This document shows positions 24,721 through 64,000 of a stretch of DNA of 64,000 nt, piece by piece. Under the pieces are notes generated by a model. It did no database searches and was not told the DNA's origin. It saw only the letters and a list, made by a program, of their open reading frames with translations. The translations under genes were made by a program, and so were the position numbers. Each line of letters starts with the position of its first letter. Positions within the stretch are counted from its first letter, which is position 1. This DNA is from Escherichia phage vB_EcoM_JS09: the sequence record NC_024124.2; one strand, 5' to 3'.

Positions 24721-24792
24721 TATCTCGTGCTTTAAGATAGGTCTCTAAATATTATGATATAATAGACCTATGAATTGAGCTAAGAGGTACTT

Positions 24793-25350
24793 ATGACTGA
24801 ACAAAAACCTAAAAATAACTATGTGAATAATAAAGAGCTTCTCGCCGCTATAATCGAGTGGAAAAAGGAGCTCTTAAATAATAAAGACCCAAACAAAATT
24901 ATTCGTCAGAATGATACCATCGGTTTAGCAATTATGCTTATCGCCGAAGGCCTGTCCAAACGTTTCAACTTTTCAGGATATACCCAGTCTTGGAAGCAGG
25001 AGATGATTGCAGATGGGATTGAAGCCTCTATTAAGGGACTTCATAATTTCGACGAAACTAAGTACAATAACCCACATGCATACATAACTCGAGCTTGTTT
25101 TAATGCTTTTGTCCAACGTATCAAAAAAGAACGTAAGGAAGTTGCAAAGAAATATAGTTACTTCGTTCATAATGTCTACGACAGTCATGACGATGATATG
25201 GTAGCGTTGGTAGATGAAACGTTTATTCAAGACATCTACGATAAAATGACGCATTATGAAGAATCCGCTTATAAAGCTCCTGGGGCTGAAAAGAAGGAAG
25301 TTGTTAGCGATTCGCCTAGTTTGGATTTTTTATATGAGGATGACAATTGA
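24793..25350 (+). CDS. 55: Late-transcription sigma factor gp55
   Basis: 185 aa, [26 protein letters not shown]... matches recalled T4 gp55. Confidence 0.9.
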
Positions 25351-25549
25351 CATCTCTAACTACTTAGAAGAACCTTTTGACGAAGCAATCCCTTATTTGG
25401 TAAAACTGTTGGGTCGTGAATTTAAAATTAATTTTGACATCGACCCTTTGAACCCACATGACGTGTCATTTTCGATAAATGGGACTCCGGTTGAGTATGA
25501 GTTCTGTATTGAAGAGGATGGACGTTTTTATTTTAATTTAATGAGATAA
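25334..25549 (+). CDS. Hypothetical protein
   Basis: In-frame ATG near end of gene 55. Confidence 0.35.
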
Positions 25550-25550
25550 T

Positions 25551-25874
25551 ATGACTACCGAGATTATTGAAAATAAAGAAGCAGAAGATGCAGTAGCTAA
25601 AATGCTACAAGAAATCCAAAAGAAAAATGAAGCTGAAGCACGTAAAAAATCCGAAAAGATTCTTAAAAAGAATCGTTTTGAACTAAACCGTCTTTATGCT
25701 CATGCTCAAGAAGCAGCAATTCAAAACAACTTCGAAGCTTACGAATATGCTATTAAGAAATCTCGGGATATTCTACGACAACCATACAATGACAAGTTAA
25801 TTAAAATCCAGTGGGTTACTACTCGTCAGGCTATTGAGGACATCATTAATGGCGCTAGTTCAAACAAAGTTTAA
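25551..25874 (+). CDS. Hypothetical protein
   Basis: 107-aa lysine/glutamate-rich ORF. Confidence 0.45.
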   Translation: MTTEIIENKEAEDAVAKMLQEIQKKNEAEARKKSEKILKKNRFELNRLYAHAQEAAIQNNFEAYEYAIKKSRDILRQPYNDKLIKIQWVTTRQAIEDIINGASSNKV

Positions 25875-26055
25875 ACGTCTGAAGCTGAACGCAGGGTTCA
25901 CCCTTAAATTGGGAGGTCCTCTTTGTGTTAAAATTTCTGAAAAGGAATATCACGACGGTTCTATTACAGAAATTTGTCCGCCTATTGTAAAGGCAGACCC
26001 AAAACAACTCGTGTGGGTTGATTCATTTCAAGTTAAGAAATGGTGGAAACGATGA
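25849..26055 (+). CDS. Hypothetical protein
   Basis: ATG 25849 after SD gagga. Confidence 0.35.
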   Translation: MALVQTKFKRLKLNAGFTLKLGGPLCVKISEKEYHDGSITEICPPIVKADPKQLVWVDSFQVKKWWKR

Positions 26056-26094
26056 GAGAAATCGATTTAGGTATTTTCTGAGAGGTGATTATGC

Positions 26095-26268
26095 ATGACG
26101 AACGACCCGACCTCTGAAAATTTCGATAAAATCCGTAAAGGCAAAGCAGAAAGAATGAGACGTTTTAAAGAGTCTTATGATAAAGCTAAAGCCGAAGGAA
26201 CTATTACATACAAGCCCATTCGATTTAAAAGTTCAAATGAGCCTCTGTACGGTGTACTATGTGGATAG
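26095..26268 (+). CDS. Small basic protein (57 aa)
   Basis: SD gaggtg; not in track; terminator hairpin starts at its stop. Confidence 0.35.
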   Translation: MTNDPTSENFDKIRKGKAERMRRFKESYDKAKAEGTITYKPIRFKSSNEPLYGVLCG

Positions 26269-26291
26269 GAACTCTTCGGAGTTCCTTTTTT
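26268..26291 (+). terminator. Rho-independent terminator (CUUCGG hairpin + T6)
   Basis: GGAACTC-TTCG-GAGTTCC followed by TTTTTT. Confidence 0.65.
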
Positions 26292-26314
26292 GCTTTATAA
26301 ACGGATGATAGAAT
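26291..26314 (+). promoter_or_regulatory. Middle-promoter-like element (MotA box TGCTTTA + TAGAAT) upstream of gene 47
   Basis: TGCTTTA, 11-nt spacer, TAGAAT; directly after terminator hairpin. Confidence 0.5.
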
Positions 26315-26337
26315 GAATTAACTAATGAGGAAATAAT

Positions 26338-27357
26338 ATGAAAATTTTAAATTTAGGTGATTGGCATTTAGGTGTTAAAGCCGATGATGAGTGGGTTCAA
26401 TCCATTCAGTTGGATGGAATTAAACAAGCAATAGAATATTCTAAGAAAAACGGAATTACTACATGGATTCAATATGGCGATATTTTTGATGTGCGAAAAG
26501 CAATCACACATAAAACTATGGAATTCGCCCGTGAAATAGTTCAAATGCTTGATGATGCTGGTATTACACTACATACCGTTGTAGGAAACCATGATATGCA
26601 CTTTAAAAATACTTTAACTCCAAATGCTTCTACTGAGCTTTTGGCTAAATATCCTAATGTTAAAGTATATGATAAGCCTACTACAGTAGATTTTGACGGA
26701 TGTTTGATTGATTTAATTCCTTGGATGTGCGAAGAAAATACAGGTGAAATCTTAGAGCACATCAAGACTTCTTCTGCCGCTTATTGTGTTGGGCACTGGG
26801 AACTGAATGGCTTTTATTTCTATAAAGGAATGAAGTCTCATGGGCTTGAACCTGATTTCTTAAAGACCTATAAACAAGTCTGGTCCGGCCACTTCCACAC
26901 AATCTCTGAAGCTGCTAACGTCAAATATATTGGGACACCATGGACCCTTACTGCAGGCGATGAGAACGACCCGCGCGGATTCTGGGTATTTGACACTGAT
27001 GTTGAACGTATGGAATTTATTCCTAATGAAACAACATGGCATCGACGAATCACTTATCCATTTAAAGGCAAAATCAATTATTCTGATTATACTAATTTAG
27101 CCGTACGTGTTATAGTATCAGAAATTGATTCAGAGTTGACTAAGTTTGAATCTGAACTTGAAAAAGTAGTTCACTCTCTTCGTATGGTTTCTAAAGTTGA
27201 TAACAGTGTTGAATCTGATGACGACCAGGAAATCGAGATTAAATCACTTCAAGATATCATTAAAGAATATATTGACGCGATTCCAGATATCTCAGACGAA
27301 GACAGAGAAGCGCTGGTTAAATATTCCAACGAACTTTATATTGAGGCAACACAATGA
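26338..27357 (+). CDS. 47: Recombination endonuclease subunit gp47 (Mre11-like)
   Basis: Phosphoesterase motifs GDWHLG, GDIFD, GNHD; 339 aa as in T4. Confidence 0.9.
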   Translation: MKILNLGDWHLGVKADDEWVQSIQLDGIKQAIEYSKKNGITTWIQYGDIFDVRKAITHKTMEFAREIVQMLDDAGITLHTVVGNHDMHFKNTLTPNASTELLAKYPNVKVYDKPTTVDFDGCLIDLIPWMCEENTGEILEHIKTSSAAYCVGHWELNGFYFYKGMKSHGLEPDFLKTYKQVWSGHFHTISEAANVKYIGTPWTLTAGDENDPRGFWVFDTDVERMEFIPNETTWHRRITYPFKGKINYSDYTNLAVRVIVSEIDSELTKFESELEKVVHSLRMVSKVDNSVESDDDQEIEIKSLQDIIKEYIDAIPDISDEDREALVKYSNELYIEATQ

Positions 27358-35730: not shown

Positions 35731-36366
35731 ATGAAAACTACTCCTATTACTATCGCTATTGACGCAATCATAAAACAAGCTTCTTCTTTGGCCGCTATGG
35801 CCAAAGTAATTAGTCAAAACCCTGCTCGTTATAATGCTATTCTAGAAACTCTTCGACGCCCTGGACTTAGTAATTATGAAAGTCGTGTAATTATTACAGG
35901 TGTTGGTAAGAACGCTAATATCGCAACTAAAGCTTCTGAGACATTTGCTTCACTCGGTATCCCGAGTATGTACTTGAACACCGGGCATTATTCTCACGGT
36001 GATGCAGGATTCATTGCGCCTAATGATGTGTTGATTCATATTAGTCGTTCTGGTAAAACTGAAGAAATGATAGGCGTGGCTAAGCATCTTAAAACGATTC
36101 GTCCGAACGTCAAACAGATTCTGTTGCATTGTAACCCAGACATTCCACAAGAAAATGAAGCCCTTTTTGATTACTCTTTCTGTACAGGCATCGCAGTAGA
36201 GGTTGATGAGAATTCTCTGGCTCCGACCATGTCCACTACATTGTTGTTAGCGCTTATCGATACTTTTGCTATCAACCTTTCGTCTGAGCGTGGATTTACC
36301 TCTAATGACTTCCTTAAGTTCCACCCTGGCGGTGCACTAGGTGCCATGTTACGAGGCGAACAATGA
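35731..36366 (+). CDS. SIS-domain sugar-phosphate isomerase (arabinose-5-phosphate-isomerase-like, KdsD/GutQ-type)
   Basis: ITGVGKNANIATKASETFASLGIPS...HGDAGFIAPNDVLIHISRSGKTEE...LAPTMSTT...HPGGALGAM mirrors the KdsD/GutQ SIS domain; no CBS domains. Confidence 0.75.
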   Translation: MKTTPITIAIDAIIKQASSLAAMAKVISQNPARYNAILETLRRPGLSNYESRVIITGVGKNANIATKASETFASLGIPSMYLNTGHYSHGDAGFIAPNDVLIHISRSGKTEEMIGVAKHLKTIRPNVKQILLHCNPDIPQENEALFDYSFCTGIAVEVDENSLAPTMSTTLLLALIDTFAINLSSERGFTSNDFLKFHPGGALGAMLRGEQ

Positions 36367-36506
36367 AAGCAATAACAATAGGACTTTTACTATTGATGCT
36401 TGTCATGACTATCTACTGGAGCTTAACGGCTCCAGTAATGATTCCAACACTTGTAATCGGATGGATTATGATTGGACTACAAGCAAAGTATGAATGCTTT
36501 AACTAG
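36363..36506 (+). CDS. Small hydrophobic membrane peptide (47 aa)
   Basis: MKAITIGLLLLMLVMTIYWSL...TLVIGWIMIGL; ATGA overlap with SIS gene; T4 imm lies at this locus. Confidence 0.35.
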   Translation: MKAITIGLLLLMLVMTIYWSLTAPVMIPTLVIGWIMIGLQAKYECFN

Positions 36507-36547
36507 AATAGTGTACAATACTCCTACTTACTAATGAGGACCACAAC

Positions 36548-38233
36548 ATGAAAAAAGCTGTTATTCTTGGTGCTGGACTGGCAACTCGTTTGTATCCAAT
36601 AACGCATCATATTCCTAAGGTGCTTGTTAACTATAAACAAGACACTATTCTGAGCAATTTGTATACAATTTATTCTGACCTTGGTGCAGATGAAATTATT
36701 GTAGTAGTTCATTCAAAATTTGCTGAAACTGTTCGAGCTTATTGTGAGCAAGAAGGGTTCAATGTGACTATTCGTACAGTTGATGAAGCATATGGTTCTG
36801 CTTATGCTCTTGCTAAATTACACAAAGATTTAGACGGCCATAATGTAATTGTTAACTGGTGTGATATTATTCCTGATTTTGGTTCATGGTCTTGGAATGT
36901 TAACGCAATCTATGTTAAGGGTGACGAATGTCGATATAATTTCGACGGTGAAAATATCACTAACGTAGGTTCAACAGGTGGTAATGTTGTAGGAATTTAT
37001 CAGTTCAAAGACTGGGAATTCTATATGGGTTCTACTGATGAGGAAATTCATGAATACTGCAAAGGACGTGATTTCGTAGAATTCCTTTACGGCAGCGCAT
37101 TCAATAAATCAGAGCTTATGAATCTAATTGATTTAGGTGATATGCCTAAACTTGAAAAAGCTCATGAAGTTCGTGAACTTAATCGTAGTTTTAATGCAGT
37201 TGAAATTGGTGAAGAAACTGTAACTAAATTCGCATTAACCGAACAGGGCCGAGCTCTTCAGAAAGATGAGATTTCATGGTATCTTAAAGTGAAATCAGAT
37301 TCAGTTCCTCAGTTAGTTTCTGTTAATGAAAATAACTTTGAAATGGAACGCATTAAAGGTAAGCCGGCATTTGAATATATTAAATCCAAATCGAGTCTTG
37401 CTCGTCCACAAATTGTTGATGCAATTTTAGACGCACTGAAATTCAGCACAGACACTTATTTTGTAAGTCCTGAAACTGTTCGTCGTGATTTCACTAAAGA
37501 ATTCTATACGAAAGTTATTGATCGTTGTGAAAGCATTCAACCATTGATTGATTCATTTGGTAAAATCACACATGTGAACTACACTAAGATTGGACGTCTG
37601 AAGCCAATGTTGAAACAAGCTTTAGAACACCTTATTCGTTATCATAACCGTTCTCAGGGACAGTACTCTGTTATTCATGGCGACCCGAACTTCAGTAATA
37701 CTATGATTACTGATAATGGTGAAGTCAAGTTTATCGACCCTCGCGGATATTTTGGCGAAACCAAGATTTATGGGCCAAAATTGTATGATGAAGCTAAAGT
37801 GCTTTATGCTGTTTCAGGTTATGATGAATTCAACGCTAATCCGACCTGGGGACAGTTTACTATTGATGAAACAACTTGTAATGTGACTATTAACATCAAT
37901 CCATTAGTTTACAAATATGGAAAGATGAGTTCGTTTAACGAGTATCATCATTTGGCTGTAGCAATTATCTGGATTGCATTAGGTGGTTATTTCAAGAATA
38001 ATCCACTTAAAGCGGTAGCCGCATATTATAAAGGTATGGAACTTCTGACTAAGCAATTACGTAACATGGGCCGTGTACTTCAGGACGGCTCTATTAGTTA
38101 TGACGTAGCAGAACCTGTAACGGCTACTCTGATTACAAAAAATCCTGGTAAATGGGTACTAACTGATAAAGAAACTGGTGTTTCCTATCGTCCAATCGGT
38201 GGCGATATCACTCATCAATGGGAACGAATCTAA
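36548..38233 (+). CDS. Bifunctional sugar-1-phosphate nucleotidyltransferase / kinase-like protein
   Basis: N-terminus MKKAVILGAGLATRLYPITHHIPKVLV is NTP-transferase-like; C-terminus VIHGDPNFSNTMITDNGEVKFIDPRGYFG resembles the APH/choline-kinase catalytic loop. Confidence 0.65.
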   Translation: MKKAVILGAGLATRLYPITHHIPKVLVNYKQDTILSNLYTIYSDLGADEIIVVVHSKFAETVRAYCEQEGFNVTIRTVDEAYGSAYALAKLHKDLDGHNVIVNWCDIIPDFGSWSWNVNAIYVKGDECRYNFDGENITNVGSTGGNVVGIYQFKDWEFYMGSTDEEIHEYCKGRDFVEFLYGSAFNKSELMNLIDLGDMPKLEKAHEVRELNRSFNAVEIGEETVTKFALTEQGRALQKDEISWYLKVKSDSVPQLVSVNENNFEMERIKGKPAFEYIKSKSSLARPQIVDAILDALKFSTDTYFVSPETVRRDFTKEFYTKVIDRCESIQPLIDSFGKITHVNYTKIGRLKPMLKQALEHLIRYHNRSQGQYSVIHGDPNFSNTMITDNGEVKFIDPRGYFGETKIYGPKLYDEAKVLYAVSGYDEFNANPTWGQFTIDETTCNVTININPLVYKYGKMSSFNEYHHLAVAIIWIALGGYFKNNPLKAVAAYYKGMELLTKQLRNMGRVLQDGSISYDVAEPVTATLITKNPGKWVLTDKETGVSYRPIGGDITHQWERI

Positions 38234-38619
38234 TGCACCGTGTAGAAAACATGCTTAATCTTTGTTTTGATGTCGATGATTGTATAACAGAGTGGAATAA
38301 CAATCGTGATTACGTGAACTTCAAACCAGACGTCGAAATGGTGACTGCCATTAATGCCCTGTATGATGCAGGGCATACAATAACGCTTTACACTGCTCGC
38401 GGTATGAAGTCAGTCGGTCCTGGTCGTATAGCAATTGACATTCTCCCAAGTCTGATTCAGAACTTGGCAAACATTGGATTGAAGTACCATAATTTGCTAA
38501 CACATAAACCAGTATATGATTGGATTATCGACGACAAAGCTATGCGTCCTGACGAATTCAAAGCTCTTATGAATAAAGGCGAATTCGAAACATTTAAATC
38601 ATATAAACCGAATCTATAA
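38233..38619 (+). CDS. HAD-superfamily phosphatase
   Basis: Motif I LCFDVDDCIT, motif II TLYTARG, motif III K...IIDDKA; TAATG coupling to upstream gene. Confidence 0.6.
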   Translation: MHRVENMLNLCFDVDDCITEWNNNRDYVNFKPDVEMVTAINALYDAGHTITLYTARGMKSVGPGRIAIDILPSLIQNLANIGLKYHNLLTHKPVYDWIIDDKAMRPDEFKALMNKGEFETFKSYKPNL

Positions 38620-38673: not shown

Positions 38674-39834
38674 ATGAATACCTTTAAAATCGGAACGAAT
38701 TTTGATTTAGCTCTTCTTGATAAAATCGTAGAGCTCAATAAAACTTATCCTAATAGCTTGATAAACGAAGTATACGGCTCTACAAGAGAAATGGCTTTTG
38801 TAGCAGCCAGACCTGATTTTAGGCTTCCTGACGTTGACAAAAAGATGTTAGAAGATTACGTTAAACGTTGTAACGAATTAGGTATTTGCTTTAACTATAC
38901 ACTCAACACGATAAATCCTGGTTCAAAAAGAGAACTAGTTGAGTGGAAGAAGAAAGCTATTCAGGATTATGTTCAGTATCTTTGGTCAATAGGCGTATGG
39001 CGTATTACTATCGCTAACCCTGTTGTTATGGAAATTGTTCGTGAAGTCAATAAAGACATTGAGATTGAAGTTTCAACAATTCTACATGTCGATGCTGTAA
39101 CTCAAATCAAATACTTGCATGACCAGTATAATATCAAAAAGGTCTGCTGTGGAATTCATAAGAACCGTTCAGTTTCTTTCCTGAAGCGTGCAGCAGAGTT
39201 TTGCAATAAGAACAATATAATATTTGAAGTTCTTGTAAATGAGTTCTGTTCTAATGCTGGTAAAGGGTATACAACACATTGTAGCTATCGTGACTCTTGC
39301 TATATTTTCCATAGTACTGATGTTACAGCTGATGATGCTAAATCCTTAAACGGATATCCTATGCAGCACTGTATTAAAGCTCGTGATACAGACCCATTTA
39401 ACTGGTTGAGAACTCGTTTTGTTCGCCCCCAAGATTTGAAACTTTATAATGATATTGGTATCACTCAATTTAAAGTTTCGGGACGTACAGGTAGCACCGA
39501 CTACATTTTGAAAGTTCTTGAAGCTTATGCTTCTGAAAAGTTTGAAGGTAATTTGTTGGAATTGTGGAAGCCTTTAGAGACCATTTTCACTCTTGAAAAT
39601 GAGACAGAGTTTTCACATACAGTAAATATTGAAACCTCTTTGTTAGATGGCTTTTTAGAAAAAAGGTGGTTCAGACATCCAGATTTCGATTGTGCTAATG
39701 AAATCTGCGGGACGACGTGTACATATTGTGAAAGATATTATAAACGTCAATTATCTAAAAACGGGTTAGCAGAAAACTCTATATCTATTATTGATATAAC
39801 TAACTCTGATGACGCTTTGAGGTACCCGGAATGA
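38674..39834 (+). CDS. Peptidase-U32-family protein (UbiU/RlhA/TrhP-like putative Fe-S enzyme)
   Basis: N-terminus IGTNFDLALLDKIV...EVYGSTREMAFVAARPDF, NPVVMEIVREVNKDIEIEVST and Cys cluster EVLVNEFCSNAGKGYTTHCSYRDSCY parallel U32 hallmarks. Confidence 0.6.
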   Translation: MNTFKIGTNFDLALLDKIVELNKTYPNSLINEVYGSTREMAFVAARPDFRLPDVDKKMLEDYVKRCNELGICFNYTLNTINPGSKRELVEWKKKAIQDYVQYLWSIGVWRITIANPVVMEIVREVNKDIEIEVSTILHVDAVTQIKYLHDQYNIKKVCCGIHKNRSVSFLKRAAEFCNKNNIIFEVLVNEFCSNAGKGYTTHCSYRDSCYIFHSTDVTADDAKSLNGYPMQHCIKARDTDPFNWLRTRFVRPQDLKLYNDIGITQFKVSGRTGSTDYILKVLEAYASEKFEGNLLELWKPLETIFTLENETEFSHTVNIETSLLDGFLEKRWFRHPDFDCANEICGTTCTYCERYYKRQLSKNGLAENSISIIDITNSDDALRYPE

Positions 39835-39992
39835 TTTCTAGAAAAACTTTTAACCACCAACTTAACGAAGAGATTTTGACTATGAAACTGAACACTAATG
39901 AACAAATTCTTAAAAAGGCCCTGATGGGCCTGTTTGAAACTAAAGCGGCTAAAGTGATTAAAGAAACCTGTTCAATTGGAATACTACGCTGA
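39831..39992 (+). CDS. Small hypothetical protein (53 aa)
   Basis: ATGA overlap with U32 gene; not in track. Confidence 0.3.
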   Translation: MISRKTFNHQLNEEILTMKLNTNEQILKKALMGLFETKAAKVIKETCSIGILR

Positions 39993-40070
39993 TGCATTTC
40001 TTCATAGTGTTCTTGGAAGTATCGATGCTGAAGCTTTACGTTATATCAACATTGTCAAGAAATTCAAATA

Positions 40071-40094
40071 AGCTTTACGAATTGAGTATATAAT
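40071..40094 (+). promoter_or_regulatory. Middle-promoter-like element upstream of gene 42
   Basis: AGCTTTA, 11-nt spacer, TATAAT. Confidence 0.4.
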
Positions 40095-40113: not shown

Positions 40114-40830
40114 ATGGGAAAACATAACACAATGAAATATATCAAAGCCGCAGATTTTCAAACCGCATTTAAAGCAGTCAATCGTGAAATTTTAGAAAAC
40201 CCGGAATTCGTAACTGATTCTCGTATTGGACGTTGTAATGAAATTGGGTCTATGACAGTAGTTGTTGACACTCCATCATCATTCAAAATGACCGACCCAC
40301 GTATTAACCGCATCTCTTATGAATATGCCGAAGACTTCTGGAAGTTTATGATTTCTGGTGGTACCAACGCAGAAGAAGCGTTTAAGGCATATCCTAATGT
40401 CGCTAAATTTATTTCTAAACCAAAATCAGATGTTTTGCCGGCGAACTTCAACACTTTCTATGGTCCTCGCATTGCGGCCCAATTACCAGCTCTTCTAAAA
40501 GAACTTAAAGAGAAGCCTAACTCCCGAAGAGTTGTGTTCCAAATTCTAGAAAGTTCTGATCAGGCTTTGCTTGATTCAGACGAAACGCTTGAATATCCAT
40601 GTACTGACTCAGTGACTTATTATATTCGTGATGGTAAGCTTTATACCCACTGTCATATGCGTTCTCAGAACTGTGCTGTTGTTATGCAGTTGGATTTTTA
40701 TCTCCAAGGAAAATTACTTCATTATATCGCTAACGAATGTGGTGTAGAAGTTGGTGATTATACTCATACCATGGTAAGTGCCCATGTGTTTGAACGTGAT
40801 TTTGATTATGTTAAAGGATTCCTTGACTAA
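40114..40830 (+). CDS. 42: Thymidylate-synthase-fold pyrimidine hydroxymethylase (dCMP hydroxymethylase-like, divergent)
   Basis: Active-site-like EYPCTD, SRRVVFQI and MRSQNCAVVMQLDF segments; occupies gene 42 position between 43 and uvsX. Confidence 0.65.
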   Translation: MGKHNTMKYIKAADFQTAFKAVNREILENPEFVTDSRIGRCNEIGSMTVVVDTPSSFKMTDPRINRISYEYAEDFWKFMISGGTNAEEAFKAYPNVAKFISKPKSDVLPANFNTFYGPRIAAQLPALLKELKEKPNSRRVVFQILESSDQALLDSDETLEYPCTDSVTYYIRDGKLYTHCHMRSQNCAVVMQLDFYLQGKLLHYIANECGVEVGDYTHTMVSAHVFERDFDYVKGFLD

Positions 40831-41729
40831 TGGCTATTTTCCGCGTACCTATTTTGAGTATGCGGTCTTATGAAACTGGACAGTATGCTATCCTTAAGGA
40901 TGGCAACTTCCAACTTCATTTGCACCGTGCTAATCCAGGTGATGTGATTACATATCCACGTAATGCATCTGATATTAAAGAATGCGAACGTCTTTTTCCG
41001 GAATTTAAGTTTGTTCCATTATGGTATAAAGATAACGCGTATAACACTCGTAAATATTTCTGGTCTGAAAATGAATTTGTGGTTGATTCATTAATTGCTT
41101 ATTATGATTGTGATTTTCTAATCACAGATATCACTGGATATGATGGCGCTTTTGACGTAGAATTCAATTTCAATATCACTGCAGACCCTAATAAACCACG
41201 TTTTTATATTGATGAATTCTTAAAAACCGACATGTTGTCTGTTAATCGTTCACTTCAAACTACTGTGTTGAATGAACGTCAAAAAGAAGTGCTGGTTAAC
41301 GCAGGTGCAGATGGTAATAAGATTATCGTAACACAGAAAGTTATACGTCCTTCCGTCATGCAGCGTCTTGTAGGTGATTTGGCTCCTATTCATCTAGATG
41401 GTATTTTTCATCCATTTCGAATTAGTGACCCATGCTATCGTTTTGAACAAGTGGTTGAATGCGCAATTCAATTAGGTCAACCGCTTTATATAACTGATCC
41501 AAATAATAGTTTCGACAGAAATAAGTATCCTGAAGAAGCGCTGATTCGAATTTTTAATCCAACTAAAACTGAGTACTATCAAATTCTTAAAGGACGTCCG
41601 AAGATTCAATATTTCGAAAATCCTGAAGAAGTATTCCATCCAGGTCTTGGTGAGTTCATCTACTTTAATGCTTTAATTTCTTCGCCGTATAATATACCTA
41701 AATACGAAGATGTCGTAATCGAGGAATAA
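40830..41729 (+). CDS. Hypothetical protein at the T4 beta-glucosyltransferase locus
   Basis: 299 aa; TAATG coupling to gene 42; no resemblance to recalled T4 beta-gt. Confidence 0.5.
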   Translation: MAIFRVPILSMRSYETGQYAILKDGNFQLHLHRANPGDVITYPRNASDIKECERLFPEFKFVPLWYKDNAYNTRKYFWSENEFVVDSLIAYYDCDFLITDITGYDGAFDVEFNFNITADPNKPRFYIDEFLKTDMLSVNRSLQTTVLNERQKEVLVNAGADGNKIIVTQKVIRPSVMQRLVGDLAPIHLDGIFHPFRISDPCYRFEQVVECAIQLGQPLYITDPNNSFDRNKYPEEALIRIFNPTKTEYYQILKGRPKIQYFENPEEVFHPGLGEFIYFNALISSPYNIPKYEDVVIEE

Positions 41730-41730
41730 A

Positions 41731-42279
41731 ATGGCTAAAATTATTTTAGTAGATGGCCCGGATAATGCCGGTAAAACAACTTTCATTAATGACATAATGG
41801 AAATTAGTGAAAGATATGTAAAGATTGATTTCCCTAAACGAACAGTTGATGGACGTTTCGATGTTAAGTCTCGAAATGAAGTTGGCTGTTTCGAAACGAT
41901 GTTGAATTATTTAGACCCTACTAAGATTTATCTGTTAGACCGTGGATATATTAGTAACTGGGTTTATGGACGTATTCGACAAGATGTGGACTCGGTTCTT
42001 GACGTTTATGAACAGGATTATGTTCGTCTTTGCCAAAACCATGATGTGTTCACAATTATTTTAACACGTAACGAAATGACTGAAAGTTTTGAAGACGACC
42101 TTATTACTTTGTCTTCATTCGGTTTTAATACAGTCATTTCATATTTTGAAGAGTTTGCAATTCATAACAAAATCCAAACGTATCAATTACTTAATCATGA
42201 CGGTGCTAACAAAGTTATAGGATTTAATGCAAGCGAACGTAATTATTTGATTACAGAAATTATCAAATGGGCTCGTTAA
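41731..42279 (+). CDS. P-loop kinase-like protein
   Basis: Walker A VDGPDNAGKTT at N-terminus, 182 aa, NMP/sugar-kinase-like size; SD gagga. Confidence 0.5.
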   Translation: MAKIILVDGPDNAGKTTFINDIMEISERYVKIDFPKRTVDGRFDVKSRNEVGCFETMLNYLDPTKIYLLDRGYISNWVYGRIRQDVDSVLDVYEQDYVRLCQNHDVFTIILTRNEMTESFEDDLITLSSFGFNTVISYFEEFAIHNKIQTYQLLNHDGANKVIGFNASERNYLITEIIKWAR

Positions 42280-45426: not shown

Positions 45427-45801
45427 ATGAATATGTCTCAGGCAATTTTTACTGCAATCACCGAAAACACAACTGTTGAAGTAGTTTCTCCGCTGGCAAC
45501 CTACGTTATTCTTGCTCCTAAAACTATTGTATCTCGTATGGAAAACATGGGCAAACGTATCGTACAAATTGTTGGAGCCGGAAATCAAAAACTTGATTAT
45601 CTGCGAACCATCAAAGCTTATGAACATTTCCAACTCGAAAAAGGTTCTCCTATCCAGGTAGAACTCGTAAATGGTGATATCGTTCGAGCAATGTTCCATC
45701 ATTTCTATGCATTGAATGACCCATCTAAAGCGGTTCGTTTAATTGCATACGACGCAAACCAAAACGAAATCAACGCAGATATATCTAAATTACGTTTTTA
45801 A
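45427..45801 (+). CDS. Hypothetical protein
   Basis: SD agagga; early promoter upstream. Confidence 0.5.
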   Translation: MNMSQAIFTAITENTTVEVVSPLATYVILAPKTIVSRMENMGKRIVQIVGAGNQKLDYLRTIKAYEHFQLEKGSPIQVELVNGDIVRAMFHHFYALNDPSKAVRLIAYDANQNEINADISKLRF

Positions 45802-45850
45802 GTTTACTTCTCCAGTAGTTGTGTTATTATAGACCTATCAACTACTGGAG
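45802..45850 (+). promoter_or_regulatory. PeSL-like early promoter cassette
   Basis: GTTTAC, TATTAT -10, arms TCTCCAGTAGTTG / CAACTACTGGAGA. Confidence 0.55.
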
Positions 45851-46174: not shown

Positions 46175-46362
46175 GCAAATTAACTAAAGTTACTTTTATT
46201 GGCTGGTTTAAAAATGATAATACGTTCACTAAAGATATCATGTTATCAGGTGACCGTGAAGAAATCGAGTGGGTTGCGGTACAACTTGCTGAAGTGAACA
46301 AAGCATTAGTTAAAGCATTTGTTAATGACGAGAAAGTTTTTGAAGCTGATTTCAGAGGATAA
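46171..46362 (+). CDS. Hypothetical protein
   Basis: ATG 46171 after SD gagga; ATGA overlap. Confidence 0.4.
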   Translation: MSKLTKVTFIGWFKNDNTFTKDIMLSGDREEIEWVAVQLAEVNKALVKAFVNDEKVFEADFRG

Positions 46363-46363
46363 T

Positions 46364-46576
46364 ATGTATTCAACTGTGTTTAAACCATCAACATACGAAT
46401 TTGCATCAACTACACAATGGAAAGCTCTTATTCTGGAAGGATGGGAACTAATGATGGACTGTGAAGCATCTGAAAAGTTTCCACACGGCAAAGTGGACTT
46501 CGTTAAATTTGCTGTACGTCCGACTAAACGACAGATTCGTCAAGAAAAACGCAAATTTCGCAAAAGTTTAAAATAG
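46364..46576 (+). CDS. Small basic protein, RPTKRQ-motif family
   Basis: C-terminal FAVRPTKRQIRQEKRKFRKSLK. Confidence 0.45.
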   Translation: MYSTVFKPSTYEFASTTQWKALILEGWELMMDCEASEKFPHGKVDFVKFAVRPTKRQIRQEKRKFRKSLK

Positions 46577-50354: not shown

Positions 50355-50876
50355 ATGGCACACTTTAACGAATGTTCACAACTTATTTCTGGTGTTGATA
50401 AAGCAGAAGAAGCTTATTTTAATGCTCTGATTCACGAAGATAAAGACCCACTTCAGGTAATGCTTGATATGCAGAAATCTTTACAGGTTCGTTTGGCAAA
50501 TGACAAGCCTGAACATAACAAACATCCTGATGAATTGGCCACTGCAGGCGACGTTGTTGATTGGCTGCGTAATCAGAAAGATTATATTGATGATGAATTC
50601 CGTGAACTGCTGACTTCACTTGGTGGTATGAGCAATGGTGAAAAAGCCGCCAGCAGTGTATGGAAGCCGTGGAAAGCACAACATGCTGAATATCGTAATC
50701 GTCGTATCGATGAACTGTCTCCTGAAGACCAGCTTGAAATTAAATTTGAGATGATTGATATTCTGCACTTCGTTCTGAACATGTTCCAAGGTCTGGGTCT
50801 TTCTGCTGAAGAAATCTTTAAACTTTACTACTTGAAAAACCAACACAACTTTGAACGCCAGGATAATGGTTACTGA
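50355..50876 (+). CDS. 56: dCTP pyrophosphatase gp56
   Basis: MAHFNEC...DKDPLQVMLDMQ...SPEDQLEIKFE...AEEIFKLYYLKN matches recalled T4 gp56. Confidence 0.9.
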   Translation: MAHFNECSQLISGVDKAEEAYFNALIHEDKDPLQVMLDMQKSLQVRLANDKPEHNKHPDELATAGDVVDWLRNQKDYIDDEFRELLTSLGGMSNGEKAASSVWKPWKAQHAEYRNRRIDELSPEDQLEIKFEMIDILHFVLNMFQGLGLSAEEIFKLYYLKNQHNFERQDNGY

Positions 50877-50882
50877 TTAAGT

Positions 50883-51503: not shown

Positions 51504-51692
51504 ATGATGCCTATTCCTGATACACGTGAAAAGGCTTGGGAATACATTGGTGACGGAATGATGGAAGAAGTTGTTCGTCCTAAGTCTGCTTCAAACTCTT
51601 CAAGTTATAATCATTCATACGTATCGTCTTGGCCCGGTGATTCTGGGTCAAGTTATTCTGATTGTGGTTCAAGCTCAGGGAGCTGCGAATGA
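51504..51692 (+). CDS. Ser-rich small protein
   Basis: In-frame ATG in ORF 51381-51692. Confidence 0.3.
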   Translation: MMPIPDTREKAWEYIGDGMMEEVVRPKSASNSSSYNHSYVSSWPGDSGSSYSDCGSSSGSCE

Positions 51693-51868
51693 ACAAGATA
51701 GTTAAATGGTTTAAAAGCTGGGACGATGGTGTCGGTCCAGAAGATTGGCTGGATGTTCTTGAAGAGAATATGGCTAAAGAATTCCAGAAACATGAAGAAA
51801 AGCTCGTCGAAGATGAAGGCGAACGTATTGTAAAACTTTATATGGGTGAACCATCGAGGAAATTATAA
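51689..51868 (+). CDS. Hypothetical protein
   Basis: ATGA coupling. Confidence 0.35.
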   Translation: MNKIVKWFKSWDDGVGPEDWLDVLEENMAKEFQKHEEKLVEDEGERIVKLYMGEPSRKL

Positions 51869-52729: not shown

Positions 52730-53311
52730 ATGACATGTCAATCTGAACTTCAAGAACGCGAATACCTAACAAATCTGATTGATAGCAAATTCACCCGCCA
52801 AGAACAAAACATTCTCTGGGCCTGCACCGATTCTAAGGAAGACCCGGATTTCCACTATGAATTAGACCATCTTGTTCGTAAGCATATGACTTCTACAGTG
52901 CCAGTAGAACTCTACCGTGGTGTAACTCCAGAAGAAGTAGAACGTCTTTCCCTTCTTTCTGTGGGATGCCATTGGTCTCCTGGACGAGTAACATCGTTCA
53001 CAACTGATTTCAGTACAGCTCGTCAATTCTCCGGGAGATGGGAATATCAGACGTACACTATTCTTAGTCTCAGGAATGCTCCATTCATTTTTGATTACTA
53101 CCAAAACATGGTTAACATTGTACTTGCCGGAAAGAACCCTAAGCATGTTATGGAAGAAACGCGTGTTGACGTCCTAGATATGATTGAATCTGAACAAGAA
53201 TACATGGTCTCAGGTATCTCTAGATTTGAGATTGCGGAAATTGAAGAGTTAGAGTATGACCCTTTGTCTCGAGTATACAAAATCATTCACTTAAAGATGT
53301 TGAATTTTTAG
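52730..53311 (+). CDS. modB: ADP-ribosyltransferase, ModB-like (by position and R-S-E motifs)
   Basis: YRG, FTTDFSTA, EQEYMV motifs; tandem paralogue of next gene. Confidence 0.55.
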   Translation: MTCQSELQEREYLTNLIDSKFTRQEQNILWACTDSKEDPDFHYELDHLVRKHMTSTVPVELYRGVTPEEVERLSLLSVGCHWSPGRVTSFTTDFSTARQFSGRWEYQTYTILSLRNAPFIFDYYQNMVNIVLAGKNPKHVMEETRVDVLDMIESEQEYMVSGISRFEIAEIEELEYDPLSRVYKIIHLKMLNF

Positions 53312-60158: not shown

Positions 60159-60581
60159 ATGGCTTTTAAAGGTTTTGAAGTTGGTAAGAAATATCGTATT
60201 ATCAAAGGTCAAGAAGATAATTTCTTGAGAATTCTTAATACAACTGGTAAACGTCTTAACACTACTCTGCATACAGTTTTATTATCAAGAGATTTTATTG
60301 TAGAAGAGATGATTGGTTACGGTGTTTCAATGATTGCCGCTGAAACCGATGGACCTGGGCGTACAATCATTAGTATGCAAGGTGATATTCTGCTTTATGG
60401 TGCAGAATTTAAATTCTTTGAAGAAGTTCCGGAACCAGATACAGCTGTCGATTTCAAAAAAGGCTCTATAGAATTTGTTGATGGTTCGGTGATCGTATCA
60501 GGCGATGTGGTCATTACAGTTAAAAGTGAACAAGGGCGTTTGGCTGCAATTGATGCACTTCAGAAAATTAAATTTAAATAA
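60159..60581 (+). CDS. Hypothetical protein
   Basis: 140 aa; terminator hairpin downstream. Confidence 0.5.
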   Translation: MAFKGFEVGKKYRIIKGQEDNFLRILNTTGKRLNTTLHTVLLSRDFIVEEMIGYGVSMIAAETDGPGRTIISMQGDILLYGAEFKFFEEVPEPDTAVDFKKGSIEFVDGSVIVSGDVVITVKSEQGRLAAIDALQKIKFK

Positions 60582-60598
60582 GGGCTTCGGCCCTTTTT
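60581..60598 (+). terminator. Rho-independent terminator upstream of gene 39
   Basis: GGGC-TTCG-GCCC followed by TTTTT. Confidence 0.6.
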
Positions 60599-60622
60599 GC
60601 TTTAGATTTCGGATGATAGAAT
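60598..60622 (+). promoter_or_regulatory. Middle-promoter-like element upstream of gene 39
   Basis: TGCTTTA, 12-nt spacer, TAGAAT; near-identical to the gene 47 element. Confidence 0.5.
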
Positions 60623-60644: not shown

Positions 60645-62462
60645 ATGATTAAAAATGAAATTAAGGTATTGTCAGATGTAGAACATATTAAGAAACGTAG
60701 TGGCATGTATATTGGTTCTTCGGCCAAAGAAGCCCACGAGCGTTTTTTGTTTGGTAAATATCAACAAGTTGAATATGTTCCTGGTCTGGTTAAATTAATC
60801 GATGAGATTATTGACAACTCGGTTGATGAAGCTATTCGTACATCATTTAAGTTTGCAAATAAAATCGATGTGCAAATTAAAAATAATCAAGTTTCGGTGG
60901 AAGATAACGGACGTGGTATTCCTCAAGGTTTAGTTACCGACCAAACAGGTGAACAAATTCCTGGGCCTGTAGCGGCCTGGACTATTCCAAAGGCTGGTGG
61001 TAACTTTGGTGATGACTCTGAACGCAAGACTGGCGGTATGAACGGCGTCGGGAGTAGTTTAACTAATATCTTCTCTACGTTGTTTACAGGCATAACGTCA
61101 GATGGCGAAAATGAAATCACTGTTAACTGTTCAAACGGAATGGAAAACAAATCGTGGTCTTCTAAGAAATCTAAAGGTAAAGGCACTAAAGTAATCTTCA
61201 CTCCTGATTTCTCTTCATTTGAAGAGCATAATTTATCTCAAATTTATTTAGATATTACTTTAGACCGACTTCAAACATTGGCAGTCGTTTATCCTGATAT
61301 CAAGTTCACATTTAATGGTAAAAAGGTTGATGGTAATTTTAAACGATTTGCTAAACAATTTGGCGAAGATAGCATCATTCAAGAAAATGATAAAGTCTCT
61401 ATAGCATTCACAACATCACCGGACGGCTTCCGTCATTTAACTTATGTGAATAACATCCATACTAAAAATGGTGGTCATCATGTTGAATGTGTAATGGATG
61501 ATATCTGCGAACATCTTTTGCCGGGTATTAAAAAGAAATATAAGGGTATTGAAGTCACTAAAGCTCGTGTTAAAGAATGTCTCACAATGTTGATGTTTAT
61601 TAGAGACATGAGCAACATGCGTTTTGATTCTCAGACTAAAGAACGTTTAACGTCAACGTATGGCGATATTCGTAATCATATCCAATTAGATGCTAAGAAA
61701 ATTGCTCAGGCACTTCTTAAAAACGAAGCCTTGATTATGCCTATTGTTGAAGCAGCATTAGCTCGTAAATTGGCAGCAGAAAAGGCTGCAGAAACTAAAG
61801 CAGCTAAAAAGGCAACTAAAGCTAAGGTTCATAAGCATATTAAAGCTAACCAATGTGGTAAAGATGCAGATACGACATTGTTTTTAACAGAAGGTGATTC
61901 GGCAATTGGTTATCTCATTGATGTTCGTGACCGTGAACTACACGGTGGATTCCCATTACGTGGTAAGGTGATGAATAGCTGGGGTATGTCATATGCCGAT
62001 ATGATGAAGAACAAAGAGCTCTTCGATATCTGTGCTATCACAGGTCTTATTCTTGGTGAAAAGGCAGAGAATACGAACTATCGTAATATTGCAATTATGA
62101 CCGATGCCGATCATGACGGTCTTGGAAGTATCTATCCGGCTTTGCTTGCTTTCTTTAGTAATTGGCCTGAATTGTTTGAACAAGGACGTATTCGCTTTGT
62201 TAAAACGCCTGTAATTATTGCACAAATTGGCAAAACTCAAAAATGGTTTTATACTGTAGCTGAGTATGAAGAAGTTAAAGATACACTGCCTAAGCATAGT
62301 ATTCGATACATCAAGGGATTAGGCTCCCTTGAAAAGTCAGAATATCGTGAAATGATTCAGAACCCTGTGTACGACGTAGTTAAACTTCCTGAAAATTGGA
62401 AAGAACTCTTTGAAATGTTGATGGGTGATGATTCAGAACTTCGTAAAGAATGGATGTCCTAA
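60645..62462 (+). CDS. 39: Type II DNA topoisomerase large (ATPase) subunit, unsplit 39/60 form
   Basis: GHKL ATPase motifs EVIDNSVDE, GRGIP, GGMNGVG; 605 aa without interruption. Confidence 0.9.
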   Translation: MIKNEIKVLSDVEHIKKRSGMYIGSSAKEAHERFLFGKYQQVEYVPGLVKLIDEIIDNSVDEAIRTSFKFANKIDVQIKNNQVSVEDNGRGIPQGLVTDQTGEQIPGPVAAWTIPKAGGNFGDDSERKTGGMNGVGSSLTNIFSTLFTGITSDGENEITVNCSNGMENKSWSSKKSKGKGTKVIFTPDFSSFEEHNLSQIYLDITLDRLQTLAVVYPDIKFTFNGKKVDGNFKRFAKQFGEDSIIQENDKVSIAFTTSPDGFRHLTYVNNIHTKNGGHHVECVMDDICEHLLPGIKKKYKGIEVTKARVKECLTMLMFIRDMSNMRFDSQTKERLTSTYGDIRNHIQLDAKKIAQALLKNEALIMPIVEAALARKLAAEKAAETKAAKKATKAKVHKHIKANQCGKDADTTLFLTEGDSAIGYLIDVRDRELHGGFPLRGKVMNSWGMSYADMMKNKELFDICAITGLILGEKAENTNYRNIAIMTDADHDGLGSIYPALLAFFSNWPELFEQGRIRFVKTPVIIAQIGKTQKWFYTVAEYEEVKDTLPKHSIRYIKGLGSLEKSEYREMIQNPVYDVVKLPENWKELFEMLMGDDSELRKEWMS

Positions 62463-63898: not shown

Positions 63899-64000
63899 TG
63901 AGAGAAAAATCCAGTCAAGTCCTTTACGAGTACCAACAAAGTTTGAACGACGAGTATTACCGAATGCTCCTGCATCGCCATGTTCACCAAAACCGCCAGC

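Follow-up and report, generated by a model that had tools for sequence, protein, structure and literature searches.

An empty alpha-gt site between genes 55 and 47 of a Mosigvirus with an RB69-type arabinosyl-5-hydroxycytosine gene set

An arabinosyl-5-hydroxycytosine pathway has been described for phages RB69, HY126, Bas46/47 and DLP3 (Thomas 2018, PMC6024577; Lee 2026, PMC13326640; with further publications by Mahler 2025 and He 2026 cited therein). In RB69 DNA, 5-hydroxycytosine bears one or two arabinoses, and experiments have shown that RB69 gp48 produces 5hodCMP (Lee 2026, PMC13326640). RB69 is without homologues of the glucosyltransferase genes alpha-gt, beta-gt and beta-alpha-gt (Thomas 2018, PMC6024577), and phages with beta-gt and beta-alpha-gt homologues but without an alpha-gt homologue also exist (Thomas et al. 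2018, PMC6024577, Table 1). The lack of alpha-gt and the arabinose chemistry are thus already published for RB69-group phages. In T4-type phages, composite stem-loop-plus-promoter motifs termed PeSL and PmSL mark the places where genes are gained and lost (Arbiol 2010, PMC2839356; Comeau 2014, PMC4122927); the elements described were PmSLs in vibriophage nt-1 and, in the T4/PST pair, mostly PeSLs with early promoters (PMC2839356, PMC4122927). A text search of Comeau 2014 (PMC4122927) returned neither 'a-gt' nor 'RB69'. Here we describe the interval between genes 55 and 47, where alpha-gt lies in T4, in a stretch of 64,000 nucleotides from Escherichia phage vB_EcoM_JS09 (NC_024124.2), hereafter the window, which represents 64 kb of a genome of approximately 168 kb.

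The phage belongs to the T-even phages of the RB69 group (Mosigvirus), and its 55–47 region has 94.7% DNA identity to RB69 and 98–99% to JS09-type Mosigvirus genomes (for example, TU01 and EP02SG). The left boundary of the interval is gene 55 (24793–25350, + strand), encoding the late sigma factor (91% amino acid identity to T4 gp55; phrog_234, E = 4e-68), and the right boundary is gene 47 (26338–27357, + strand), encoding the SbcD/Mre11-like nuclease subunit (86% amino acid identity to T4 gp47; phrog_100, E = 1e-140). The original prediction had placed just four short ORFs at 25334–26268, together with a terminator and a MotA-type promoter, and no protein of GT-B size in this interval, and our analysis bears it out on each point: exactly these four ORFs were found, all on the + strand, the hairpin and the promoter were located at 26267–26286 and 26291–26314, respectively, and across all six frames no ORF exceeds 107 amino acids, with ORFs of only 31 and 50 amino acids on the minus strand. 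The gap between the last of the four ORFs and gene 47 is 69 bp, with no ORF of approximately 400 amino acids inside, and no T4 late promoter (TATAAATA) was found in or near the interval. The arrangement used as reference, a 1.2-kb alpha-gt gene between genes 55 and 47, was likewise confirmed in T4 and in the T2-type phage RB51.

Each of the four ORFs is an orthologue of a small T4 gene of this locus. The a-gt.5 orthologue (25334–25549, + strand; 71 amino acids, DUF5491), whose start overlaps the end of gene 55, was matched by T4 a-gt.5 in tblastn (E = 1e-14, 47% identity) and by PF17595 (49.4 bits, cut-off 27), with pN of 0.34 versus pS of 0.76 against T4. The a-gt.4 orthologue (25551–25874, + strand; 107 amino acids, DUF2654) gave E = 2.5e-32 and 58% identity with T4 a-gt.4 in tblastn, 96.6 bits with PF10849 (cut-off 25) and dN/dS of 0.18 versus T4, and it shares a 26-nt overlap with the a-gt.3 orthologue (25849–26055, + strand; 68 amino acids). 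The latter was matched by T4 a-gt.3 (tblastn E = 1.7e-29, 71% identity; dN/dS 0.12 versus T4) and by phrog_1648 (E = 1.6e-34), and by no Pfam family above gathering score. The a-gt.2 orthologue (26095–26268, + strand; 57 amino acids, DUF5486) matched T4 a-gt.2 (tblastn E = 3e-24, 76% identity; dN/dS 0.21 versus T4) and PF17588 (97.3 bits, cut-off 27). Because all four match PHROG families (E = 1e-24 to 1e-37), three of the four (DUF5491, DUF2654 and DUF5486) pass Pfam gathering scores and dN is far below dS (dN/dS 0.12–0.46 versus T4, RB51 and VR7, counting only unsaturated dS), the four small ORFs are real genes, and their tight packing behind gene 55 indicates that they are probably co-transcribed with it. 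NCBIfam contained no family for any of the four, no sequence relative in the PDB was found for the two queried there (the a-gt.4 and a-gt.2 orthologues), and a literature search found no published function for the a-gt.2 to a-gt.5 proteins. A match of the a-gt.2 orthologue to the 'head maturation protease' family phrog_17354, spanning 34 of 57 amino acids, was rejected as an annotation artefact; its better matches are to uncharacterised families.

The T4 locus is alike in its flanking genes 55 and 47, in a-gt.5 to a-gt.2 and in a hairpin-plus-MotA-box module 3′ of a-gt.2. The blastn alignment to T4, however, stops at position 26301 of the window and restarts at 26336, with 34 bp here versus 2252 bp in T4, and the T4 genes missing here are mobB, a-gt and 47.1 only. 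In T4, mobB is a homing-endonuclease gene and 47.1 a tiny ORF; T4 a-gt is NP_049673, a protein of GT-B fold (PDB 1XV5/1Y6F). T2-type phages carry a-gt, a second module and 47.1 between a-gt.2 and 47, and T4 adds mobB, whereas the window lacks all of these. The alpha-gt gene of T2 and T4 is bracketed by two hairpin-plus-MotA-promoter modules, in contrast to the one module found here, in RB69 and in VR7. The 34-bp stretch that stands in place of the T4 cassette (26302–26335, + strand) comprises the last part of the promoter spacer, the −10 hexamer, a predicted leader of the transcript and the gene 47 ribosome-binding site; in T2-type phages the equivalent stretch is homologous to the a-gt leader. 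The RB69 locus (NC_004928, RB69p067–p071, annotated as a-gt.5 to a-gt.2 and 47) has the same genes, order, spacing, hairpin and promoter and differs by point changes only, one of them at the junction (TAGAAT here, TAAAAT in RB69). From its annotation, the Gaprivervirus VR7 also has a-gt.2 followed directly by 47 without the cassette, and blastn alignments unbroken across the junction in phage Bp7 and an Enterobacter phage suggest the same arrangement there.

The junction is occupied by an intrinsic-terminator-like hairpin, GGAACUC-UUCG-GAGUUCC followed by six T (26267–26291, + strand), that was recovered by a terminator scan (−12 kcal/mol, z = −3.1). Its stem-loop has eight pairs and a UUCG loop and begins within the a-gt.2 stop codon, and the last T of the six-T run is the first base of the MotA box. 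Equivalent hairpins with other stem sequences but conserved pairing occur in T4/RB51, VR7 and Klebsiella phage ER8. The MotA-type middle promoter, TGCTTTA-N11-TAGAAT (26291–26314, + strand; box at 26291–26297, −10 hexamer at 26309–26314), is an exact match to the pattern and lies 23 nt upstream of the gene 47 ATG, with GAGG at 26327–26330. The pattern TGCTTNA-N11-13-TANNNT is about five-fold enriched in the window (18 seen versus 3.7 ± 1.9 expected), and GCTTTAT and the −10 hexamer are invariant in six aligned modules from five phages. On these motifs, the promoter is predicted to drive genes 47, 46.2, 46.1 and 46, and both promoter and terminator would be active. The module resembles a PmSL, in which a stable hairpin immediately precedes a middle promoter with a Mot box (TGCTT) at an intergenic position where relatives differ in gene content: we find the hairpin, the TGCTT box with a −10 hexamer at 11–13 nt, and a difference in gene content among relatives. 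A second copy of the stem-loop-plus-Mot-box promoter module is present in the window at 60581–60622.

The tBLASTn search with T4 alpha-gt that had been proposed as a check on the original prediction gave no significant match in the window (best E = 2.6) or in the genome of EP02SG (best E = 0.066), a relative of 168 kb and approximately 97% identity to the window that stood in for the whole genome. A three-sequence alpha-gt HMM, run on six-frame translations of the window and EP02SG, returned nothing better than E = 1.1. In tblastn searches with beta-gt, the best E was 1.6 in the window and EP02SG had no match at E ≤ 1; with T2-type beta-alpha-gt, the best E was 7.6 in the window and 0.9 in EP02SG. 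Nor did the window contain an orthologue of the dCMP hydroxymethylase gp42, its sole ThyA-like gene being 25% identical to T4 gp42 (E = 1e-10). For the rest of the genome outside the 64-kb window, the relatives point to the same gene content; no phage record attains 99% identity to positions 1–25000 of the window, the nearest being at approximately 98%. Across 50,697 phage records, alpha-gt was found, among the matches listed, in Tequatrovirus-type phages (at least 90% identity) or in Klebsiella/Raoultella phages (approximately 66%), with five cyanophage records counted among the organism names of the listed matches.

Elsewhere in the window we found the complete gene set of an RB69/HY126-type system, namely a ThyA-like synthase, UDP-arabinose genes with 98–99.7% identity to RB69 and two GT-B transferases. 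The first gene of the cluster (35731–36366, + strand) encodes an arabinose-5-phosphate isomerase homologous to RB69 gp55 (99.5% amino acid identity to ORF055c; Pfam SIS; role per PMC13326640, Table 1). It is followed by a single 561-amino-acid ORF (36548–38233, + strand) for a bifunctional sugar kinase/nucleotidyltransferase leading to UDP-arabinose (RB69 gp53:52, HY126 AfhE analogue), with 99.5–99.7% amino acid identity to ORF053c and ORF052c, a Pfam NTP_transferase match and weak kinase-family matches, and by a gene for a HAD-like sugar phosphatase (38218–38619, + strand; RB69 gp51, HY126 AfhF analogue; 98.4% amino acid identity to ORF051c, role per PMC13326640). A Peptidase-U32-like protein (38674–39834, + strand; RB69 gp50; 99.5% amino acid identity to ORF050c, Pfam Peptidase_U32) precedes the ThyA-like 5-hydroxy-dCMP synthase (40114–40830, + strand; 99.2% amino acid identity to RB69 gp48), which occupies the position of T4 gene 42 and has a full-length match to PDB 9iqc/9ir2 (E = 8e-161). 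The entries 9iqc, 9ir2 and 9iqu are labelled just 'Thymidylate synthase', and their codes neighbour the HY126 entries 9iqz/9ir0. Further genes encode a thymidylate-kinase-like nucleotide kinase (41731–42279, + strand; RB69 gp45; 97.8% amino acid identity to ORF045c) and the gene 56 dCTPase (50355–50876, + strand; 97% amino acid identity to RB69 gp56 and 72% to T4 gp56), which removes dCTP from the nucleotide pool.

The two glycosyltransferases are the proposed first, base-proximal arabinosyltransferase (40830–41729, + strand; RB69 gp46:47), at the position of T4 beta-gt, and a second GT-B glycosyltransferase (62505–63605, + strand; 99.7% amino acid identity to RB69 ORF003c) that is proposed to add the second arabinose. 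Neither was matched by a Pfam or NCBIfam family. For the first, a gp46:47-family profile found no PDB relative by sequence, and a GT-B fold is confidently predicted by comparison of its modelled fold. The second was assigned by its 99% identity (E = 8e-250) to the solved structure of the 'phage HY126 glycosyltransferase (with UDP)' (PDB 9iqz/9ir0), because its AlphaFold2 model, built from six sequences, was poor (pLDDT 60). The RB69 pathway genes queried (ORFs 003c, 045c–053c, 055c and gene 56) occur here in the same order with 97–99.7% amino acid identity, except for the ORF049c homologue within the cluster, which is split into two short ORFs (39831–40071). Conversely, RB69 ORFs 46/47 and 52/53 each correspond to one uninterrupted ORF here, as expected if the splits in RB69 stem from sequencing errors, which is the published view. 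The enzyme activities named above come from the literature on RB69 and HY126 proteins, which are 99% identical to those encoded here.

The original prediction took the locus as support for a modification chemistry different from the glucosyl-hmC of T4 and T2. This conclusion holds, but on other ground: the empty alpha-gt site alone is weak evidence for another chemistry, because the cassette-free junction is also present in VR7 and apparently in Bp7 and the Enterobacter phage, and because some phages with beta-gt and beta-alpha-gt homologues likewise have no alpha-gt homologue (PMC6024577). The decisive evidence lies elsewhere in the window, which has no gp42 orthologue and no beta-gt or beta-alpha-gt but does carry the RB69-type arabinosyl-5-hydroxycytosine gene set. 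Overall, we consider it about 90% probable that this is an RB69-type arabinosylating Mosigvirus whose alpha-gt site is empty, the cassette being unneeded and presumably lost. At the locus, the conserved T-even block from a-gt.5 to a-gt.2 would end in the terminator hairpin, and the MotA-dependent middle promoter would restart transcription into 47 and 46, which encode the recombination nuclease. The phage would make no hydroxymethylcytosine, so the alpha-gt cassette would not be needed; instead, the ThyA-like enzyme would hydroxylate dCMP to 5-hydroxy-dCMP, the genes at 35731–38619 would make UDP-arabinose, and the two GT-B transferases would add one or two arabinoses to the 5-hydroxyl group. 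By analogy with RB69 and HY126, we infer that the virion DNA carries arabinosyl-5-hydroxycytosine.

As approximately 105 kb of the genome lies outside the window, alpha-gt or a different hmC glucosyltransferase might have been relocated there; the whole genome of EP02SG, however, gave no alpha-gt, beta-gt or beta-alpha-gt match (tblastn, HMM), RB69 has none (Thomas et al., PMC6024577) and the window has no gene for gp42, the hydroxymethylase needed to supply the substrate, which renders relocation very improbable. That the four ORFs stand in place of alpha-gt was rejected, since T4 has the same four in the same order. A substitute modification function for them, suggested solely by their position and by the historical 'a-gt.N' names, is extremely improbable: T4 and RB51 carry all four alongside alpha-gt, VR7 also has them, and Klebsiella phage ER8 has more divergent versions (37–59% to T4, and for a-gt.2 just 29% identity to the window over 34 residues). 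Present in T4, RB51, VR7 and ER8, the four ORFs therefore occur whatever the modification type, and their products of 57–107 amino acids match no enzyme family in Pfam, NCBIfam or, for a-gt.4 and a-gt.2, the PDB. An assembly error or a laboratory deletion of the 2.25 kb in one isolate, for which we found no support, has a negligible chance of being correct, as the contiguous arrangement is shared by 142–145 independent phage records and the hairpin, promoter and ribosome-binding site are all intact at the junction, which is one base off that of RB69.

A further account opposes only the secondary-loss part of the main reading. In it, the site was empty from the start, and an alpha-gt cassette with its own hairpin-promoter module was inserted at a recombination hot spot in Tequatrovirus and the Klebsiella phages; we regard this as a serious possibility, although not the one we would choose. 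It accords with the cassette-free order in VR7 and, as suggested by blastn, in Bp7 and the Enterobacter phage, with the documented role of stem-loop/promoter modules as gene gain and loss sites in T4-type phages (PMC2839356, PMC4122927), and with the homing endonuclease genes that adjoin alpha-gt in T4 (mobB) and in Klebsiella phage ER8 (an HNH gene), which suggest mobility. Yet Tequatrovirus and the distant Klebsiella phages share the position of alpha-gt, and the gene has diverged between them (66% amino acid identity) to roughly the same degree as the flanking core gene 47 (71%), which fits vertical descent from a common ancestor. The window and T4 resemble each other (gp47 86%) more than they resemble the Klebsiella phage, and with vertical descent of alpha-gt this argues, by parsimony, for loss here. 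We infer that the cassette was lost from this site. Tentatively, and at slightly short of even odds, alpha-gt may be a discrete cassette between two modules and the module at 26267–26314 a deletion scar in the Mosigvirus lineage, formed after the exchange of dCMP hydroxymethylase for dCMP hydroxylase removed the alpha-gt substrate.

The cytosines of this phage are predicted to be glucose-free, carrying arabinosylated 5-hydroxycytosine and not glucosyl-hmC, and this predicted chemistry bears on restriction digestion, sequencing and CRISPR editing, and on sensitivity to type IV restriction and glycosylase defence. To the published picture of RB69, HY126 and Bas46/47 our analysis adds nothing except the module-level anatomy of the alpha-gt site, in which two modules in T2/T4 versus one here provide a concrete, testable case of cassette gain or loss. 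If the deletion-scar reading is true, repeated regulatory modules would be a means of shedding an obsolete modification enzyme after a change in base chemistry.

Sequence analysis of the interval between genes 55 (24793-25350; 91% amino acid identity to T4 gp55) and 47 (26338-27357; 86% amino acid identity to T4 gp47) agreed with the original prediction that only small ORFs, none long enough for a GT-B enzyme, occupy the site: no ORF exceeds 107 aa in any frame, those on the minus strand reaching just 31 and 50 aa. The four plus-strand ORFs matched T4 genes in tblastn, in the T4 order, as orthologues of a-gt.5 (25334-25549, 71 aa; 47% identity, E = 1e-14), a-gt.4 (25551-25874, 107 aa; 58%, E = 2.5e-32), a-gt.3 (25849-26055, 68 aa; 71%, E = 1.7e-29) and a-gt.2 (26095-26268, 57 aa; 76%, E = 3e-24). 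Each matched a PHROG family (E = 1e-24 to 1e-37), three of the four surpassed Pfam gathering scores (DUF5491, DUF2654 and DUF5486), and dN/dS against T4, RB51 and VR7 was 0.12-0.46 where dS was unsaturated, with non-synonymous far below synonymous change; together, these results point to four genuine genes. The a-gt.5 ORF start overlaps the gene 55 stop, the a-gt.4 ORF begins 1 base past the a-gt.5 ORF end and a-gt.3 overlaps a-gt.4 by 26 nt, suggesting a single transcription unit with gene 55. None of the four proteins matched an NCBIfam family, no sequence relatives of a-gt.4 or a-gt.2 were found in the PDB, and a literature search found no published account of the functions of a-gt.5 to a-gt.2. 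Because the same four occur in T4 and in RB51, a T2-type phage, the ORFs were ruled out as a stand-in for alpha-gt. Shortly before the ribosome-binding site of gene 55, an AGGTCT...AGACCT inverted repeat (24739-24769) encloses TATGATATAAT, with TGCTTTA nearby at 24728-24734; this could be a hairpin that regulates gene 55, or its promoter.

The T4 record reads 55, a-gt.5, a-gt.4, a-gt.3, a-gt.2, mobB, a-gt, 47.1, 47, and together with RB51 it confirms the placement of a-gt between 55 and 47 in T4/T2. In blastn against T4, the 55-47 segment was unbroken apart from 26301-26336, where 34 bp stand in place of 2252 bp (mobB, a-gt and 47.1) in T4, and tblastn with these three T4 genes gave no match in any part of the window (best E = 0.28). 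The arrangement in RB69 is the same as in the window, annotated a-gt.5 to a-gt.2 and then 47. Identity across the region is 98-99% to the JS09-type Mosigvirus isolates EP02SG and TU01, 94.7% to RB69 and 94.9% to HY126, which is among the close matches to the interval. The alpha-gt site is also empty in VR7 (Gaprivervirus), and unbroken blastn matches across the junction suggest the same for phage Bp7 and an Enterobacter phage.

The terminator and MotA-type promoter that had been predicted were both located, with every listed element present. A terminator-like hairpin, GGAACUC-UUCG-GAGUUCC plus a U-run (26267-26291; folding energy -12 kcal/mol, z = -3.1), starts within the a-gt.2 stop codon and directly abuts a middle-promoter arrangement consisting of the MotA box TGCTTTA (26291-26297), an 11-nt spacer and TAGAAT (26309-26314), followed by GAGG (26327-26330) ahead of the gene 47 ATG at 26338. 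With 18 matches in the window, mainly on the transcribed strand, the pattern TGCTTNA-N11-13-TANNNT exceeds the expected 3.7 ± 1.9; no late promoter TATAAATA was found near the interval. In RB51, a hairpin, MotA box, -10 hexamer and ribosome-binding site follow a-gt.2 and precede a-gt, and a second hairpin with MotA box and -10 hexamer lies between a-gt and 47.1-47; T4 has mobB additionally inserted past the first module, whereas there is just one module in the window, in RB69 and in VR7. In the Klebsiella phage vB_KpnM_SmallBear_ER8 (L014, 1489-3534), alpha-gt likewise lies at the 55-47 site, with a module upstream of it; between alpha-gt and 47 come a small ORF and then an HNH endonuclease gene abutting 47, so that a homing-endonuclease gene stands beside alpha-gt in both ER8 and T4 (mobB), on opposite sides. 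Across six aligned modules, GCTTTAT and the -10 region are invariant and all hairpins are stable, with stems that differ in sequence; the window hairpin side aligns with the first T4 module, and the window spacer CGGATGA resembles the second-module spacer CGGAGTTTGA. In layout, these modules are of the PeSL/PmSL type, elements that mark sites of gene gain or loss (Arbiol et al. 2010, PMC2839356; Comeau et al. 2014, PMC4122927). A further module occupies 60581-60622, where hairpin AAGGGCTTCGGCCCTT precedes TGCTTTA-N12-TAGAAT, 22 nt ahead of a gp39 topoisomerase homologue (60645-62462); the hairpin of this module is identical to that after a-gt in T4, and the 13-mer CGGATGATAGAAT is common to the module and the gene 47 promoter.

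The tblastn search that the original prediction had proposed found no alpha-gt homologue in the 64-kb window or in EP02SG, a relative with a complete genome of 168 kb that is about 97% identical across the window. Matches in the window were at chance level (T4 alpha-gt, E = 2.6; T4 beta-gt, 1.6; RB51 beta-alpha-gt, 7.6), as were those in EP02SG (alpha-gt, best E = 0.066; beta-alpha-gt, 0.9; beta-gt, none at E ≤ 1), and when the window and EP02SG were translated in six frames, an HMM built from T4, RB51 and Klebsiella-phage alpha-gt sequences reached at best E = 1.1. Thomas et al. likewise found alpha-gt, beta-gt and beta-alpha-gt absent from RB69 (PMC6024577). Alpha-gt is present in 657 of 50,697 phage records; the matches in a sampled listing were Tequatrovirus-type phages (at least 90% identity) and Klebsiella/Raoultella phages (about 66%), and the organism counts included five cyanophage records. 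Elsewhere 96-99% identical to EP02SG, the window has short stretches without a megablast match there (1638-2140, 45431-45847, 46352-46551, 50839-50882, 51583-51823 and 52773-53277), small variable segments that are either indels or replaced ORFs. Its last 90 bases (63911-64000) align at a distant site in EP02SG, at about 163.4 kb on the opposite strand, instead of carrying on beside the rIIA.1-side sequence, so the two phages differ in gene content past that point.

Secondary loss is tentatively favoured for the cassette (a-gt and its companions) in the Mosigvirus lineage, because T4 alpha-gt and that of the Klebsiella phage (66% identity) have diverged about as far as their flanking gene 47 (71%), and the window stands nearer to T4 (gp47, 86%) than the Klebsiella phage does to either of them. 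Gain of the cassette by independent insertion is only somewhat less likely.

The whole RB69 arabinosylation gene set is present in the window at 97-99.7% protein identity: arabinose-5-phosphate isomerase (35731-36366; RB69 gp55), a fused kinase/nucleotidyltransferase (36548-38233; gp53:52), HAD-type phosphatase (38218-38619; gp51), U32-like protein (38674-39834; gp50), ThyA-like enzyme (40114-40830; gp48), a GT-B protein (40830-41729; gp46:47), kinase (41731-42279; gp45), dCTPase (50355-50876; gp56) and a second glycosyltransferase (62505-63605; ORF003c). The ThyA-like enzyme shares just 25% identity with T4 gp42 and aligns along its whole length with PDB 9iqc/9ir2 (E = 8e-161). Two GT-B enzymes are thus encoded, neither of which is picked up with alpha-gt as sequence query: the gp46:47 homologue is predicted to be a distant structural relative of alpha-gt, and the ORF003c homologue is assigned by its 99% identity to the solved structures 9iqz/9ir0 ('phage HY126 glycosyltransferase (with UDP)'). 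RB69 ORFs 46/47 and 52/53 are annotated apart, whereas the window has uninterrupted ORFs of 299 and 561 aa, which supports the published statement that the RB69 splits are sequencing errors (PMC13326640). Within the arabinosylation cluster, the homologue of RB69 ORF049c (79 aa) is itself split into two overlapping pieces in different frames (39831-39992, 53 aa; 39976-40071, 31 aa): either the frameshift is genuine or the RB69 or window sequence contains an error.

Arabinose, not glucose, was reported on RB69 DNA, with ORF003c put forward as the transferase (Thomas et al. 2018, PMC6024577). Lee et al. 2026 (PMC13326640) showed the base to be mono- and di-arabinosylated 5-hydroxycytosine, with 5-hydroxy-dCMP made by gp48, and proposed gp46:47 and gp3 as first and second arabinosyltransferases. 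As cited there, He et al. 2026 (Nat Chem Biol) reconstituted the hydroxylation reaction and characterised the UDP-arabinose enzymes AfhE and AfhF of HY126, and Mahler et al. 2025 (Cell Host Microbe) covers Bas46/47 and other phages. Enzyme activities in the window are carried over from the 99%-identical RB69 and HY126 proteins.

The original prediction took the empty alpha-gt locus as support for a different modification chemistry. Its conclusion appears right, but its reasoning was incomplete because the site is empty in VR7 as well and some phages have beta-gt and beta-alpha-gt homologues yet lack one of alpha-gt (PMC6024577, Table 1). Strong evidence comes instead from a hydroxylase/arabinosyltransferase cluster in the same window that takes the place of gene 42 and beta-gt: the positions of these two genes in T4, between gene 43 and uvsX, are occupied by the ThyA-like gene and the first glycosyltransferase. 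The different chemistry is already established for this genus, with a published explanation, and the finding, although correct, is an ordinary one: a trait already known from a well-studied group of phages.
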